From positions 1-64,000 of the IMG/VR virus record IMGVR_UViG_3300047509_000103: a stretch of 64,000 nucleotides of DNA; one strand, written 5' to 3'. This DNA is from a virus. The position numbers and the translations under genes were made by a program. Below, piece after piece: positions 1 to 11,791 of this stretch (positions within the stretch are counted from its first letter, which is position 1; each line of letters starts with the position of its first letter). The notes beneath the pieces were generated by a model. That model saw only the letters and a list, made by a program, of their open reading frames with translations, was not told the origin of the DNA and did no database searches.

Positions 1-215
1 AGCGCATAGACTGCGGTGGAAATTCTTGAACGCAGCAGTGTCATCCCCGCCAATCGTGCGATTGCGCAATTCAAAGGCATACGATTGCAGCCAGCCAGCG
101 GCATGAATCCTGTCCCTCATCGTGCATTCTTTTGACTCAAGCTGCGTCGCCAGCGCGCCTAATGCGTCGGCACGCTCCGCGTCGGTCTTGAGACCACCAG
201 TCGGTTCTGCGATGG

Positions 216-2345: not shown

Positions 2346-3884
2346 TCAACCCCTCTCTGGTGTATTTTGCTGTTGAATTACGGTGCGTTTTCCTGCGTGG
2401 TCAGGCGCCGACACGACGCCTTGTTCTTCCATCGTTTCGACCAGCTGCGCGGCGCGGTTGTAGCCGATCTTGAACACTCGCTGGACGTAGCTGATCGACA
2501 CCGCGCCAGCTTCGCGCACTGTGGCGATCGCCTTGGGCAGCAAATCGTCCGCTTCGCCGCCGCCAAAAGAAGCCAGCACTTCGCCGGTGTTTCCATCCGA
2601 TACGGTGGCGGTGACGCCCTGCTCCTTGCAGAGCCGGTCCATTTTCTTCACGGCCGCATGCACCTTCGGTGACGCCGCCGGTGCGCTCGGCTCGGTCATC
2701 TCGACTAGAGCGGCGAGGATCCACAACGATGTGTAGCCAGCGTTCTTGCCGTGGTTTTCTTTCGCCAGTGCGATCGCCGCCTCGGTGTCAGTCGTGCCGT
2801 CTTTCTTCGCCCGCTTTGTGATCGCCGCTGCACTGCTGGCCATCGTCTCGTCGAACTTGTGCCCGAGGAATTCGCGCGCGGTCTTCCGTGCCTCGTACAT
2901 CTTGGCAGTGATACCGATCACCTTCTCCCACTTGCCAGTCGTCTCCGCATCCCGCATGTGCTTCGGCGCGTCACCGCCATCGAGCGTGAGCTTCGGCGCC
3001 GCGCTGACCCCGAACGTTGATGCCAGCCAGTCCAGCACGCGCCGCAGCTCGAGCGTCATCAGCGCGAACTGCGAGTCGAACAGTTCCGCGGTGCTCTCGG
3101 CATCGCCGAGTTCGTCCTGCACCACATCCAGGAACCGCACCTTGTGCAGGCACAGCGCCTCGTCGAGTACGAACGAAACCCGATCATCGAACACCAGCGC
3201 CAGGCGAAACACCTGCTTGCCCGATTTCAGGTGCTCGCGCACTTCGTCCGATTCCAAGTCCTGATTCGTGCAGCGGACAACGGCGCCGGTTTCGGCTGGA
3301 TCTCGCAGCTCAATCTGATCACCGAGCACCAGATGCTCAGGCAGCTTGCCGTTGATCACCCAGTCGGTCATCAGCGCGCGCGGTGATTCTTCCGGCGAGA
3401 GCGGCACGCAGGGGAACGAGCCGGCCGCTTCGCGGATCGACGAGATGATGTTCTCGGCAACCTTGCGTGTAGCGTGGTCGATCACCAGCCAACCGTCTTT
3501 CGTGAAATAGGCGTTGGTGCGGCGCGTGCGCACGAACGCCTGCGGCAGCAGTGTGGTGAACACTTCGTCTTTGATGCGCTTGCGTTCTTTCGCGCCGACT
3601 CCCACGCCCGTCGCCGCTTCGATCGCGTCGATTTTGTGCGCCAGCACATCGCGCACCACGTCGGCCGGAAGCAACCTTTCCTGCTGCGCCACGGTGATCA
3701 GTTTGAAGTCGCCGACCACGTGCGTGTATGAGTCATCGAACCCATGCACGGGCGGCACGAAGCCGAACGTCGACAGTTCGAGTGGGCCACAGTCGCGCAA
3801 GGCGTGCTTTGGCAACGCATCGCAGAGCGCGCCCAGATCAATCTCTTGGCCGAAGCGGTAGCAAGTTAGGTTGCGGAAGAACAT
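2346..3884 (-). CDS. rdgC: Recombination-associated protein RdgC with C-terminal FtsK gamma-like winged-helix domain
   Basis: MFFRNLTCYRF..GFVPP..ERLLPA RdgC core; C-terminal SISYVQRVFKIGYNRAAQLVETMEEQGVVS is the FtsK gamma signature. Confidence 0.92.
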   Translation of the reverse strand: MFFRNLTCYRFGQEIDLGALCDALPKHALRDCGPLELSTFGFVPPVHGFDDSYTHVVGDFKLITVAQQERLLPADVVRDVLAHKIDAIEAATGVGVGAKERKRIKDEVFTTLLPQAFVRTRRTNAYFTKDGWLVIDHATRKVAENIISSIREAAGSFPCVPLSPEESPRALMTDWVINGKLPEHLVLGDQIELRDPAETGAVVRCTNQDLESDEVREHLKSGKQVFRLALVFDDRVSFVLDEALCLHKVRFLDVVQDELGDAESTAELFDSQFALMTLELRRVLDWLASTFGVSAAPKLTLDGGDAPKHMRDAETTGKWEKVIGITAKMYEARKTAREFLGHKFDETMASSAAAITKRAKKDGTTDTEAAIALAKENHGKNAGYTSLWILAALVEMTEPSAPAASPKVHAAVKKMDRLCKEQGVTATVSDGNTGEVLASFGGGEADDLLPKAIATVREAGAVSISYVQRVFKIGYNRAAQLVETMEEQGVVSAPDHAGKRTVIQQQNTPERG

Positions 3885-6192: not shown

Positions 6193-6763
6193 CGACCTTC
6201 TCTCATGCCGTCTCGAATAGCGTTGCTGATCGCCGCTGATCCAGTGCAGCCGTACTTATCGCTGTCGCCCATAAAATCAGCGATTCGCTTCATGCTGACA
6301 GCGATAGAAAACAAGGCGCATTGCTCAGGGGAAAAATTCGACATTGCGAAAGCTGACGGTTCCACAAAGTCAAATACATTGTTCGTCTTGTTGATCATGG
6401 TCCACTCCACGTGCCAGGAGGCGCAAACAACGACACCAATACGAGGGCTAGCGCAGTCAGCCCGATCGCGATCAGCTCGAAGCGCGTTGCGAGAGAGCCG
6501 AGGTCTTTCATGCAGGCACGCTCCAGCAGAAGAACAGCAGCGCGAGAAATAGCCACGCGATGGTGCGCAGCGCGCCAGGCGTGAGTTCAACGCCACGCAT
6601 GTCGCTGCAAACCTGTGATAGAAGCGAGTACGCGCCATACAGGCCGGTGATGTACGAGCACCACAGAAAGATGTGCTGTAAGCTCAAGCTCATGGCTTCA
6701 TGCACCAGCCGAGCAACACAACCAGCGCACAGATCACAACGACGTAGAGAAGGGTGCGCGGCT

Positions 6764-7498
6764 TCATAGCGCCGCCGCAATTTCAATGGCATCAATCGCC
6801 GCGGCAGCGCCGTGCATGACGCAGAGCACCTGCGCTGGCTTCGGGTCACCGGTACGTGCGGCAGCCTCAGCGACCTGGACCTGCCACCACGTCATCACGG
6901 CTTTGATCGGCAGCGCGAGACCGACCTCGACGAATTGGCCAGTCGCCAAACCAATGCCGGTCATCGCTGCATCGGCCGCGATGCACTTGCCCACTGGAAT
7001 CGTGACGGTGTGAGCTTGGACCCACTTGTCGCGCGTGACCTCGAACGCCTGAACGTTCTCAACCGTCGGCGCGGGACACGAATCGCACATCAACATCTTT
7101 GGCTCGCCGGCCAGGGCAACGACTTTCCCGTCCTGCTTGATCTGCTCGAGAACCTTGACCTTTATGTCTGAGCACCCAGAAAGCGGCGCGACCATGGCGA
7201 TGAACATCAGGATCAGCGCCAGCGCGAACCCGGCGCGCGACGGTGCGAGATGGCGCTCAAGCGTTTCGACCCGTGGCGGCAGTGGGATGATCGGCTGACC
7301 GGTGAATTCGGCCGCCACGCGAATGCCGCTGCAGATCGCGCGGTGAGCGGTGTCGCCTTCGCGGATTGCCTTGACGGCATCGTTGCCGCACCGCAAGGCC
7401 TGCTCGTCGTTGCAGCCCATTCGAGTGGCGATGCGCATGACGTGCGCGCGTACCGCGTTCGGACGAAGTGAAACAAAATCTGGTTGTTGCATGGTCAC
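6764..7498 (-). CDS. Hypothetical membrane protein
   Basis: 244-aa ORF, internal TM segment, GGAGA RBS. Confidence 0.65.
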   Translation of the reverse strand: MTMQQPDFVSLRPNAVRAHVMRIATRMGCNDEQALRCGNDAVKAIREGDTAHRAICSGIRVAAEFTGQPIIPLPPRVETLERHLAPSRAGFALALILMFIAMVAPLSGCSDIKVKVLEQIKQDGKVVALAGEPKMLMCDSCPAPTVENVQAFEVTRDKWVQAHTVTIPVGKCIAADAAMTGIGLATGQFVEVGLALPIKAVMTWWQVQVAEAAARTGDPKPAQVLCVMHGAAAAIDAIEIAAAL

Positions 7499-7570
7499 TT
7501 GCGTTCTCCAATAAGAAGGGTGATTTTTCGTTCATCCAATTGGTGGTCGAAACGGCGTCTACTGCTTAGC

Positions 7571-7729
7571 TCAAAATCCCAAATTGCCGATTACTGACTG
7601 GCGCGCGCGACGGAGCGCACGAGGCGAACCCGCGCGCCGTTGCCGCGGCTGGGGATGCCCACAGTGCCGAGGTCGAAATCGACGACGAAGGCGCAGTCGG
7701 AGTAGGAAGGGTCCGGCGTTGACGTCCAG
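7571..7729 (-). repeat. DGR-type variable repeat copy 1 plus shared GC-rich/IMH-like 3' end
   Basis: Colinear with 10788-10946 (offset 3217); 7571-7636 identical to 10788-10853. Confidence 0.9.
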
Positions 7730-8010
7730 ACCCAATCACCATGCGAATTGAAAAGTGGATTGATCGCAGGGTTGAAAAGAGTGTCGTCGGTGATGCCGAA
7801 CAACTCCTTTCGTGTCGGCATCCTCCATTCGTTAGAGCCAGCAAGCGATGCCTCGGCGGCATACTTCACCGCAGCCGCGTGGTTCATTTCCTCAGGCGAC
7901 TCGTCGCGTGCCCACGTCAGATTGGTCAACGGGTCGTGCAAGGCAACGTAGTCCGTTGCATCGGCGGGAAGCTGCTCGTCTGTGCTGCTGATCTTTATCA
8001 AGGTATCCAT
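7591..8010 (-). CDS. DUF1566 (Lcl C-terminal/CLec-fold) protein, putative DGR target 1
   Basis: D..TNLTW, EWRMPTRKELFGI, WTST, RVRLVR motifs. Confidence 0.88.
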   Translation of the reverse strand: MDTLIKISSTDEQLPADATDYVALHDPLTNLTWARDESPEEMNHAAAVKYAAEASLAGSNEWRMPTRKELFGITDDTLFNPAINPLFNSHGDWVWTSTPDPSYSDCAFVVDFDLGTVGIPSRGNGARVRLVRSVARASQ

Positions 8011-8033
8011 GTGGTCCTCTTTTGGGGTAGTCG

Positions 8034-8498
8034 TCAGAACGGAATTTCGTCGTCGTCGAAACTGTTGGTATCGGACGGCGGCGGTGGAGCGTTTCGGGAG
8101 GATGGAGACGGCTGCGGCCCGCGTGCTGGACCGCGCTCGCGACGTTCACCACTGTCGGGCGTGCTCTTGGTGCCAAGCATTTGCATCACGTCGGCGATAA
8201 CATCCGTCGACCAGCGCTTGATTCCATCTTTCTCGTATTCCTCGGTTCGCAACTTTCCCTCGACATAGACCTGGCCACCTTTTTTCAGGTACTCGCCAGC
8301 GATCTCTGCCAAGCGGCCGAAGAACTTGATCCGATGCCATTCGGTGCGTTCCTGCTGTTCGCCGGTCTGTTTGTCTTTCCACGATTCGGACGTGGCGATG
8401 CGGATCGTCGTGATCGCCGTGCCGCTGGGCGTGTAGCGCGTTTCCGGATCGGCGCCGAGATTGCCCACCAGGATGCATTTATTGATTCCCCTGCTCAT
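8034..8498 (-). CDS. ssb: Single-stranded DNA-binding protein
   Basis: [24 protein letters not shown], acidic tail DDDEIPF. Confidence 0.98.
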
Positions 8499-9241
8499 GC
8501 GCGTCGCACCGATAGGCCTTTGTCCTCGTACACGCGCACGCCAGGGATTCGCGTGGCACCCTTGAGTGAGCGCACAACGCCACCGATAGCCTGGTTCTCT
8601 TGCAGGTAGCCGAGCAGCGTGTCGTCGCCAGCCTCGGCCGCTTTGCCGGCGGCGATTACCAGCGCCTTGAAGTCGGTCACTTCGTACTTCCAGGTCGAGC
8701 GTGAGCCGATGCCGGCAGCCTTCGGCGCTGCGACCGTCGGCATCGAAACCGGCGCCACTTCGGCGAGCTCGATCGCCTCGCGCGCTGCTTCGACGCCGGC
8801 GACGTCGCCAGACTTCGCCGCCTCGGCTTGCTGCTTTTCGAGCGTTTCACGTGCGGCGCGCGCGATGGCTTCGGCCGCGCGCTTTTCGTCGTCAGCTTTC
8901 TTCTGCTGATCCCGTTGGAAACCGAGCATCGCAGCGCGTAGCGCGTTCTCCGCGTTCGCCATTATCTCATCGGGACCGCGAAACATCTCCATGATGCGCG
9001 ACTTGCTCTCGTCGAGCGGTCGCGTCAGGCTCTTGCGCAATTCCTCCATGTCCTTGCGGCGCGTGGAGATGTTGCGTAGTTCGTCGCCAGCGATGGCATA
9101 CATGTCCTGACTGTCGACGACGATGCTCAGCGCAATCGTGCGCGACTCCGTGGCCATAGCGTTCGCGCGCGCGAGCTCGGGAAGCGACAGCGCGGTTGAG
9201 CCTGGTGCCGGCTCTCCGGCTGGCATAAGTTGTGCGTTCAT
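8495..9241 (-). CDS. Phage coiled-coil protein of the recombination module
   Basis: Long helical ORF ending IPGVRVYE, between exonuclease and ssb. Confidence 0.75.
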
Positions 9242-9867
9242 TTGTGGTTGGCCTCGAATTGGTGAATGGTCAGCGCGGACAGGAACACGCGCGCGTCGTT
9301 TGGATCCTTGAATGGCACCAGTTGCCAGCGGTCAGGCGTCAGGTGCAGGGCATAGCGATTGATCCGACCGGCGCCAGGCCCGCAGACCGCACTTGCTACC
9401 GCCTCGGGACACGATTCGCGCAGCGCGATTTCGTAGCCCGCCGTTTGTGGCCGTGCGGTACGCGGCACTGCGGCGCAGCGCTTGGTGTCGATGAGCGCCG
9501 CCTCGGCGTTGAGTCGGCCAAAGTTGTCGAGCTTGCCGGCGTAGCCATAGCGTTTCGAGTACACAAGCTGCTCGCAGAGAATCGGCTCGTAGCCAGATGT
9601 CGCGAGGAACTCGCGCCACTGCGCTAGGTACGGTCGCAGCACATCGTCGAGTGCGTCTTCGTCCAGCACATGAGCGGTATCGAGCTCGATCAGCCGGTGC
9701 ACCGCTGTGCCAAGCAGCGCCGCGCGCTCCATTACGTCGCGATCGACACAGGCGTACTCGCGATCTGAAAGCGGCTTGAGCACTTTCGTCACGCTCGGGA
9801 CATCGGTGCCGTCGAGTAGATAGCGGTGGCCATCCTCGATGAATTGGAGTTGCGGCGCCGCGTTCAT
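9238..9867 (-). CDS. PD-(D/E)XK phage exonuclease
   Basis: HRY...PSVT, GTAVH, E..VYS..YGYAGKLD...LIDTK, Q..GY motifs. Confidence 0.85.
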   Translation of the reverse strand: MNAAPQLQFIEDGHRYLLDGTDVPSVTKVLKPLSDREYACVDRDVMERAALLGTAVHRLIELDTAHVLDEDALDDVLRPYLAQWREFLATSGYEPILCEQLVYSKRYGYAGKLDNFGRLNAEAALIDTKRCAAVPRTARPQTAGYEIALRESCPEAVASAVCGPGAGRINRYALHLTPDRWQLVPFKDPNDARVFLSALTIHQFEANHK

Positions 9868-10769
9868 GCCGCGTTTGCCTTGTTGTTAGCCATCTCGCGC
9901 AGTTCGGCCAGCACCGCATTGAGATTGCTCAAGTCGATGCGGTGGTACTTCGCGATAAGCGCCTTCTCGTCGAGCCCGACGCTCTGCGCGCGCGCCTTGA
10001 GGATCGCCGCCTGAGAATCGCTCAGGTTGTGCAGACCTTCGGGCAACGTCTTGACATCGACCGCCGGCTTGTCCGCTTCCGGCTTTGCCTTCGCTTTCGG
10101 GTCGCTGAACGTCGCATCTTCGGCGGGCGCCGCGGTCGGTGTTGCTGCCGGCGTCGGTGTCGCAGCAGCTTTCGCCGTCGGCATCTGCACGACTGTTGCT
10201 GTGGCTGTTGCCGGCTCGTCGTCGAACTCGTCTGGCGTGTAGATGCCGAGCAGAGCTTCTGGAGCGTAACGGCGCGCCCATTGGCGCGTGCCGCGGTAGA
10301 CAAGCATGTCCTCGGGAATCTTGTCCCAGGCGTTGTCGACGCGGTTACCTGCCTTGTCCTTCCCGTATGTACGCCACTCTTTGACGGCGCCGGTAACCGT
10401 CTGCGGCTCGCCGTTGCCGCCCCGCGGTACACCAGTGACCTTGATCGAGGCGCCGGCCCCGCTACCAGTGATCTCGTAGTGCAAGCGCCCGTCGATCGCG
10501 CCCATGCTGTAGAGCACTGCGGCGACGAGCTTGCCTTCGTAGCAAAGGCGCTTGTGCACCACGCTCGTGCACTGCGCGACGCTGAGCGCATCCATACCCC
10601 AACGCTGCGCCTGCATCACCACGAGCAGGCAATCGCCTGGCTTGTTTTGCAGGTGCTCCGGTATCAAGCTCGATTTCGCCAGCGTCTCGGCCAGCTGCAC
10701 CGCTTCGGGCACAGAGCGCGGCACGAGTGCCTGCATCGACGTCGTTTGTTGCGTAGCTAGTTCACCCAT
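9864..10769 (-). CDS. RecT-like single-strand annealing recombinase
   Basis: LIPEHLQNKPGDCL.VVMQAQRWGMD, W...PEDML.YRG.RQWARRYAPEALLGIYTPDE. Confidence 0.88.
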   Translation of the reverse strand: MGELATQQTTSMQALVPRSVPEAVQLAETLAKSSLIPEHLQNKPGDCLLVVMQAQRWGMDALSVAQCTSVVHKRLCYEGKLVAAVLYSMGAIDGRLHYEITGSGAGASIKVTGVPRGGNGEPQTVTGAVKEWRTYGKDKAGNRVDNAWDKIPEDMLVYRGTRQWARRYAPEALLGIYTPDEFDDEPATATATVVQMPTAKAAATPTPAATPTAAPAEDATFSDPKAKAKPEADKPAVDVKTLPEGLHNLSDSQAAILKARAQSVGLDEKALIAKYHRIDLSNLNAVLAELREMANNKANAA

Positions 10770-10787
10770 CTCGTTCTCCCGTTGAAT

Positions 10788-10946
10788 TCAAAATCCCAAA
10801 TTGCCGATTACTGACTGGCGCGCGCGACGGAGCGCACGAGGCGAACCCGCGCGTTGGCGTTGCGGCCGTGGATGTACACAGTGCCGTAGTCGAAATTGAC
10901 GATGAAGGCGCAGTAGGAGACGGAAGGGACCGGCGTGGATGTCCAG
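10788..10946 (-). repeat. DGR-type variable repeat copy 2 plus shared GC-rich/IMH-like 3' end
   Basis: Colinear with 7571-7729. Confidence 0.9.
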
Positions 10947-11233
10947 TAGTACGAAGGCTTGAAGTTCAACTCTGGATCCGCTGCTGGGTTGTAGCGAGTG
11001 CGGTCAACCACGGAGTTGTTCATCTCGTCGACAGTGGCGAAACGCCAGTCGTCGTGACCGAACAGGCGACACGCGTCGCGAATCTTTTCCGCTTCGGCAT
11101 ACGACACGCTTTTGTCTATCGCGTCGTTCGCGGCCCACATCAAACCGTTCTTGGTGTCGAGGAAAGCGGCCAACACGGGCGGCACTGGTGGCGCCATCTC
11201 GCGGCCATCACTTCCGATCTTCGTCATGTTCAT
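10808..11233 (-). CDS. DUF1566 (Lcl C-terminal/CLec-fold) protein, putative DGR target 2
   Basis: DTKNGLMW, GHDDWRFATVDEM, YWTST, RVRLVR motifs. Confidence 0.88.
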   Translation of the reverse strand: MNMTKIGSDGREMAPPVPPVLAAFLDTKNGLMWAANDAIDKSVSYAEAEKIRDACRLFGHDDWRFATVDEMNNSVVDRTRYNPAADPELNFKPSYYWTSTPVPSVSYCAFIVNFDYGTVYIHGRNANARVRLVRSVARASQ

Positions 11234-11351
11234 AGAATTTCCCTTGGTTGGAATTCGTGCCGCGTCGCCGATCCGGCGCGGCCTCGGTTTGGCTTGGCCA
11301 TGCTCCTGGGGAGAGAAGGCATGGCCATCACGTCGGCGTCGTGGTGGGTTC

Positions 11352-11612
11352 TCACGGCTGAGCCTCTCTGCTGAGAAACTCGGAATCCATGATCGATTCC
11401 GGCCGCGGATCGGTGTAACGGTGTTGCCGGCAATACTCTTGCGGCAGCAAAATCTTCGGCTGCGCTTTCGGGAATTGCTTCACGCAACTAGGACAACCCA
11501 CGCCGTACTTCGCCCGCAGATACTTGCGGCGCTCACGCATGGCCTGGAATATCTCCACGCATTCGCTAACGCCCGTGTCGGGCTCGCGTTTGTGTTGTCC
11601 ATTGCGGCTCAT
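11352..11612 (-). CDS. Hypothetical Cys/His-containing protein
   Basis: CPSC...C..H; ATGA-type overlap. Confidence 0.65.
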   Translation of the reverse strand: MSRNGQHKREPDTGVSECVEIFQAMRERRKYLRAKYGVGCPSCVKQFPKAQPKILLPQEYCRQHRYTDPRPESIMDSEFLSREAQP

Positions 11613-11791
11613 GCAACTTTGTCCAGTTGCTTTACGCTGCGCATCTGATCCCACTCGATCGCGCGGCGTTTCAGCAGTGACTCAATTTTTGCCTTGTCCT
11701 CGATCGACAACGGCACATCGTTGAATCCAAGCACAGCGGCTTGCTCGATGATGTTCATCGCATGCCACACCTTCGTGTCGTCGAATTTCAT
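11609..11791 (-). CDS. Hypothetical protein
   Basis: GGAGG RBS before MKFDDTK. Confidence 0.65.
   Translation of the reverse strand: MKFDDTKVWHAMNIIEQAAVLGFNDVPLSIEDKAKIESLLKRRAIEWDQMRSVKQLDKVA

Follow-up and report, generated by a model that had tools for sequence, protein, structure and literature searches.

Two small paralogous genes of a soil phage display at their 3′ ends the footprint of a diversity-generating retroelement (DGR), and they are probably orphaned targets of that element. Both genes lie in the first 64 kb (64,000 nucleotides (nt), hereafter the window, to which coordinates refer unless the whole record is named) of the 80,857-nt IMG/VR virus record IMGVR_UViG_3300047509_000103, whose source is a soil metagenome (run X1). 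Gene A (7591..8010, minus strand, 139 amino acids) is a stand-alone C-type lectin fold of the Lcl_C/DUF1566 family and a DGR-type target, as judged from its open reading frame (ORF), Pfam and AlphaFold2/Foldseek, and gene B (10808..11233, minus strand, 141 amino acids; ORF and Pfam) is its paralogue, located just upstream of recT in the leftward operon to which A also belongs. A DGR origin of both 3′ ends is well supported by the sequence comparisons given below. In addition, we consider it rather probable that the DGR core (i.e., the avd gene, the template repeat and the reverse transcriptase (RT) gene) was lost from this phage, the tips of A and B being probably frozen and their target sites intact.

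The footprint itself was obtained by comparing A and B gap-free and codon by codon, backward from their stop codons. The stop codon, the last 14 codons and 20 nt past the stop are identical over 66 nt (7571-7636 = 10788-10853), and these two minus-strand segments (7571..7636 and 10788..10853) form the constant 3′ ends of variable regions A and B, respectively. The preceding 28 codons, i.e., the variable block of region A (7637..7719, minus strand, codons 15-42 back from the stop) and that of region B (10854..10936, minus strand), hold 18 mismatches in 12 codons, distributed as 10/8/0 over codon positions 1/2/3. None of the 12 variable codons is synonymous, all of them are NNC or NNT, and an A is present in one copy at 14/18 variable sites. 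Farther upstream, divergence is of the ordinary kind: the 96 aligned codons carry 46/41/55 mismatches at positions 1/2/3, and 15 of their codon differences are synonymous, the two proteins being 43% identical. Our recount agrees with the mismatch counts, codon positions, 66-nt identity and adenine sites reported in the first-pass annotation, which was made from the sequence alone. Copying of both tips from one template would explain why they differ only at codon positions 1 and 2, why the non-adenine positions are identical and why the tips share an adenine-free block and a motif. The nearest template available for comparison is that of a related DGR locus, L047 (~72% nucleotide identity to the variable regions of A and B), and 13/18 variable sites fall on its adenines versus 12/111 invariant sites (Fisher P 1e-7).

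The constant end opens with a 36-nt adenine-free GC-rich block encoding ARVRLVRSVARA, followed by a stop-spanning motif, CAGTAATCGGC...TTTGGG, and both block and motif recur in variable regions from over 50 related DGRs. Indeed, a family motif across the stop codon (consensus CAGT-A/G-ATTGGCC-TTTTTGA and variants) is found 3′ of essentially all variable regions of this DGR family, while it is absent from the templates, which part from the variable regions exactly at GTCAG|T. The motif is presumably the target-recognition element of the family, similar to the initiation of mutagenic homing (IMH) element, and the 20 identical nucleotides beyond the stop codons of A and B are explained by the fact that both genes carry it. 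As in the DGR of Bordetella phage BPP-1 (mtd, avd, template repeat and brt), a C-type lectin fold carries the variable region at its C-terminus, and this region closes with a GC-rich block and then a recognition element; the DGR reading of A and B shares with BPP-1 an adenine-specific mutagenic retrohoming into the variable region. The BPP-1-like arrangement proposed in the first-pass annotation holds for the GC-rich block and the IMH-like motif. No significant counterpart of the hairpin that follows the element in BPP-1 was found, as both flanks of A and B and those of three relatives fold no more stably than shuffled DNA (z +0.3 to +1.7). Unlike A and B, the BPP-1 target Mtd is a tail-fibre receptor-binding protein.

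At the protein level, both genes match the Pfam family Lcl_C (DUF1566, PF07603) with E-values of 8e-22 (A) and 3e-20 (B), i.e., 78.1 and 73.3 bits versus a curated cut-off of 34.9, and each match spans model positions 4-117 of 117, so that one domain makes up the whole protein. Both genes have ribosome-binding sites and neither product has a hydrophobic N-terminus, the top 12-residue hydrophobicity window of A (1.5) being located inside the domain. The AlphaFold2 model of A, built with an alignment of 43 family members, reached a mean predicted local distance difference test score (pLDDT) of 91.3, and its best Foldseek match was the C-terminal domain of Legionella Lcl (8q4e, E 8.5e-5), followed by many C-type lectin domains. 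The variable residues of A (100, 103, 105, 109, 111, 114, 118, 120, 121, 123, 124 and 125) sit at 100-125 of 139, which corresponds to the C-terminal end of this C-type lectin fold, like in DGR targets. The family, the fold, the variable-site pattern and the 3′ motif all match bona fide DGRs of related phages, which bears out the earlier proposal that these 3′ ends are DGR variable regions on lectin-fold proteins. The guess that A and B act as intracellular binders, made early in infection or in the lysogen, may be added here.

Relatives with an intact core provide the comparison from which the history of A and B can be read. The first of them, L027, was found via its RecT (56% identical) and is a complete 49-kb provirus with three small DUF1566 genes around recT; its targets are followed by a bAvd-like gene, a template repeat rich in Asn codons and an RVT_1 reverse transcriptase. 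Comparison of this template with the three variable regions placed 13/14, 14/15 and 15/16 mismatches at template adenines. Note that the longest RT frame of L027 (L027:14076-15437) begins upstream of the template repeat, and that the template can be translated as an Asn-rich N-terminal extension of the RT with a weak Lcl_C match (residues 22-52). A scan with an alignment of the small proteins gave 74 viral loci, of which 53 carry Avd and RT directly 3′ of the last DUF1566 gene, and in 52 of these 53 core-bearing loci a template between avd and RT matches one to four small targets. Across those loci, 1643/1802 mismatches (91%) occur at template adenines. The comparison with variable regions of related phages suggested in the first-pass annotation shows adenine-directed mismatches in L027 and in 52 of 53 core-bearing loci. 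The family targets have a median length of 156 amino acids and essentially never a hydrophobic N-terminus and, where annotated, they lie among RecT, Erf, exonuclease and NinB genes, near an integrase. The order of recombination genes with targets on both sides is also found in L027, L063, L076 and L046. Thus, the IMG/VR relatives (L027, L047 and ~50 more) resemble the present phage in the target family (35-48% identity), in the 3′ recognition motif, in targets bracketing RecT or Erf genes and in the number of differences per variable region (9-22, and 29 in one gapped pair), which is comparable to that of A and B; in contrast to it, they have kept Avd, template and RT immediately after the last target.

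These comparisons also bear on an explanation without any retroelement, in which A and B would be old paralogues whose 3′ ends were homogenised by gene conversion and subsequently subjected to positive selection at the binding residues. Such a history would be permitted by the 66-nt identity and the direct-repeat geometry, but it has to account for the absence of any third-position change among 18 differences, whereas 18 random changes over 84 sites would all miss position 3 with P = 2e-4 even under uniform mutation. It also has to account for the coincidence of the variable sites with the template adenines of a homologous DGR (the P of 1e-7 given above), for the template-directed adenine mutagenesis seen in nearly all core-bearing loci of the family and for the fact that its RT-less members have DGR-bearing relatives. 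We therefore regard this explanation as extremely improbable.

The layout of A and B had been considered unusual in the first-pass annotation, a view that is not sustained by the literature and by the family described above. In the survey of Wu et al. (2018, PMC5758913), category ‘d’, in which the variable region overlaps DUF1566 (class CLec2), accounts for 14% of DGRs. Roughly one half of its targets are short proteins made up of DUF1566 only, and some elements have several targets or targets that are not adjacent. Like A and B, the targets of this category (e.g., that of the Legionella LdtA DGR) carry the variable region at the C-terminus of a DUF1566/Lcl_C lectin-fold domain, in a cassette ordered target, avd, template and RT, with multiple targets per element in some cases. 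LdtA is, however, a surface lipoprotein, while A and B lack a signal peptide and their genome lacks RT, Avd and template. Another parallel is offered by the cultured temperate Burkholderia phage Magia (MT701587.1), in which a nuclease, RecT, a target, a second small gene, Avd, RT and, further on, an integrase follow each other, the operon position being the same as here. One Magia target is annotated in GenBank as ‘lectin fold domain protein, potential DGR target, contains IMH-like region’, and the Magia targets are only distant homologues of A and B, with 25-30% identity in their C-terminal halves (E 2e-5 and 1e-3). The Magia core is intact. According to Roux et al. (2021, PMC8144416), most DGR targets of viruses are proteins of the tail, non-structural targets being mentioned only in passing. 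Judging from the sequences compared, a large family of DGRs in temperate phages normally has small, stand-alone targets without signal peptide on either side of the recombination genes.

In the phage studied here, no trace of the core was detected. A search of all 80,857 nt of the record for RVT_1 returned no match at E<=10 (L027, used as positive control, was detected), and tblastn with the Avd and RT of L027 against the record returned nothing for RT and nothing better than E 0.9 for Avd. BLAST of the whole record found only the two known copies of the repeat, without any third copy or template. The earlier statement that the window contains neither RT nor template is therefore correct and extends to the full record, while the expected third, adenine-rich copy beside an RT did not appear, either in the record or as a matching template in the collections searched. 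Indeed, exact-pattern scans of IMG/VR viral contigs and JGI metagenome contigs gave no match to the predicted template or to the adenine-free block, and five 21-mer matches in GTDB representative genomes were dismissed as chance, none of them showing any DUF1566 homology. Close relatives of A were equally scarce: none of gene A or of the variable-region DNA was found in IMG/VR (peptide patterns) or among GenBank phages, a protein word search with gene A gave, besides the query, a single protein of 44% identity from a contig of 545 nt, a word search with short C-terminal fragments of gene B returned no match, and a profile search of 1.8 billion representatives gave 38,442 matches, dominated by multi-domain proteins and including no close relative.

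The first-pass annotation had placed RT and template at a remote locus of the same phage, and this is not supported by the record. Its ends overlap, since window positions 1-129 repeat record positions 80713-80841 (129 nt at 99.2% identity), so that the left end of the record (1..129, no strand assigned) indicates a contig closing on itself and the genome is probably closed at ~80.7 kb. As a consequence, a core residing in an unassembled part of the phage is unlikely, and most likely the core is absent from the phage itself. CheckV estimates the completeness of the record at 93%; the idea that the core resides in the 7% called missing was rejected, given the overlapping ends. Moreover, the core sits after the last target in relatives, and it has been lost repeatedly there. 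The corresponding slot in this phage is the spacer 3′ of gene A (7499..7590, minus strand), where most relatives hold Avd, template and RT and where only 92 nt are present, followed downstream by an unrelated 244-amino-acid gene (6764-7498, minus strand), for which neither Pfam (above the cut-off) nor PHROG gave a match.

Three relatives illustrate such losses. L076 is syntenic with the window, with a repressor region, a target, a recombinase, the same exonuclease and 248-amino-acid protein and a second target, after which only one half of avd is left, interrupted by the insertion of an HNH endonuclease gene and followed by a remnant of the RT C-terminus that is fused in frame (L076:14267-15292). 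L063 has a target, recT and a second target, then a 98-amino-acid avd stump (phrog_3206) and the same HNH gene (L063:10402-11282), with no template and no RT; the variable regions of its two targets differ almost only at codon positions 1 and 2, with one synonymous third-position change (TTC/TTT), and their tails are identical. In both loci the HNH gene (phrog_3377, E 1e-61) stands in place of the second avd half, the template and most or all of the RT. The third relative, L074, is 95% complete and without RVT_1 match; its two targets flank ssb, and their differences, as read by eye, occur only at codon positions 1 and 2. Core loss is thus recurrent among relatives, to judge by these loci. Like the present phage, L063 and L076 are RT-less, and in both the paired DUF1566 targets have kept the footprint, with identical tails; the two loci differ from it in having kept half of avd and the HNH gene (plus, in L076, the RT C-terminal remnant), while no remnant other than the 92-nt spacer is left here.

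Synteny with L063 also helps to evaluate whether a real core was simply dropped by the assembler, which would have mis-joined contigs at repeated variable-region or template sequences. Two features of the data go in this direction: breaks in the Logan unitigs of the source sample coincide exactly with the two 66-nt repeats (7600/7607 and 10817/10824), and the record ends in a small inverted artefact, its final 16 nt being an inverted copy of part of window positions 44-65. However, the join 3′ of variable region A is syntenic, since L063 carries a homologue of the N-terminal part of the 244-amino-acid protein downstream of its broken core. Furthermore, skipping a core needs a repeat at both ends of the skipped piece, none of which is seen in the record, and the source run has an independent contig that matches 6500-7600 without any difference. 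An assembly error is, in our opinion, very improbable.

Taken together, the preferred reading of A and B as orphaned targets would involve the following steps. Each target is a single cytoplasmic Lcl_C/DUF1566 lectin-fold domain, in which cDNA made from a single adenine-rich template repeat would have replaced the C-terminal ~28 codons, the adenines being misread during copying. The core (avd, template and RT), which in most related temperate phages directly follows the last target in the same early leftward operon, would then have been lost by deletion or recombination, leaving the tips as frozen alleles with intact target sites. We infer that a template acted on A and B in the past, that a core was once there and then disappeared, and that the tips have stopped changing. 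Several observations weigh against this reading. There is no cognate template to align, so that adenine specificity is deduced from the L047 alignment and the codon-position pattern, which are proxies. Genome closure depends on the 129-nt overlap with its artefactual last 16 nt, and the IMG/VR label of the record is linear. At their non-variable positions the two tips have not drifted, an observation that suits a very recent loss, gene conversion and continuing homing equally well. Finally, a second soil metagenome (X2) holds a near-identical phage, of which a 177-nt contig over 10735-10911, reaching across variable region B, displays nine differences from the window, at a depth below 3 and with only 3 of the 9 listed. 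Two of them (10857 G>T and 10858 C>T) change variable codon 16, which is GCC in the window, to AAC. Two other X2 contigs, over 10033-10760 (728 nt) and 10970-11671 (694 nt compared), show no base differences. If real, the changes hint at recent diversification, perhaps in a sibling phage whose core is still in place. In addition, one X2 contig departs from the window sequence after 7263, inside the 244-amino-acid gene, and the listed X2 contigs do not span 7116-8050; the X2 sibling may differ at the gene A and core slot, although a gap in coverage is no proof of this.

Alternatively, the targets may still be rewritten in trans, by the Avd, template and RT of the host chromosome, of a co-resident prophage or of a sibling phage, during lysogeny or co-infection. 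We consider this possibility unlikely. In its favour, the adenine-free block is perfect and identical in the two variable regions, which also carry the family 3′ motif without drift, the low-depth X2 contig is changed at a variable codon between identical flanks and the X2 sibling departs beside the slot for a core. An avd-TR-brt cassette (TR, template repeat) carried by a plasmid has been shown experimentally to act in trans, as described by Wu et al. (2018, PMC5758913), but the same authors make the case that the targets of a DGR borne by a phage stay on the element that carries it. The adenine-free block was not found in IMG/VR, JGI metagenome contigs or GTDB representative genomes (apart from the five chance 21-mers), and the case of L063 indicates that a footprint and identical tails can outlast a demonstrable loss of the core. 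A broader version of this idea, which we hold to be doubtful, is that RT-less phages borrow hypermutation in trans and that the family constitutes a phage repertoire of diversifiable intracellular binders, directed for instance against host defence proteins, rather than receptor-binding proteins.

Coming back to the two targets, their genomic surroundings can be described as follows. The leftward early operon reads, in order, B, recT, the exonuclease, the 248-amino-acid protein, ssb, A and the 244-amino-acid gene. The recombination module located between both targets (8034..10769, minus strand; Pfam RecT and SSB, PHROG RecT-like and exonuclease families) consists of recT (9864-10769; Pfam RecT and PHROG RecT-like), a PD-(D/E)XK-type exonuclease (9238-9867; PHROG exonuclease), the 248-amino-acid exonuclease-associated protein (8495-9241) and ssb (8034-8498; Pfam SSB), all on the minus strand. 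Note that the 66-nt direct repeats bracket this whole module and could mediate its deletion or duplication by homologous recombination. The RecT and exonuclease are identical on a second JGI contig. Elsewhere in the early operon, a 512-amino-acid protein (window 2346-3884, minus strand) combines a full RdgC domain (E 2e-93) with a C-terminal FtsK gamma domain. Beyond the window, the late region contains a single 3093-amino-acid ORF (record 66421-75702, plus strand), after which the minus strand carries an integrase-like gene (record 77815-79035; E 7e-20 to a PHROG integrase) that has no Pfam Phage_integrase match and that extends the leftward operon around the junction of the record ends. A minus-strand ORF runs through this end-to-end junction, and Pfam searches of the genes at the record ends gave nothing except a weak, sub-cut-off HAD_SAK_2 match at 868-1368.

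From one angle, these results add little, as they describe one more pair of DGR targets, here without the enzyme. From another, they provide a clean example of DGR decay, from intact cores through HNH-broken cores to no remnant at all, in which the written tips and the recognition sites persist. RT-based annotation pipelines would miss such orphaned DGR targets. Altogether, the findings point to a large and little-discussed group of temperate-phage DGRs that diversify several small cytoplasmic lectin-fold proteins around the recombination genes, and not tail fibres.

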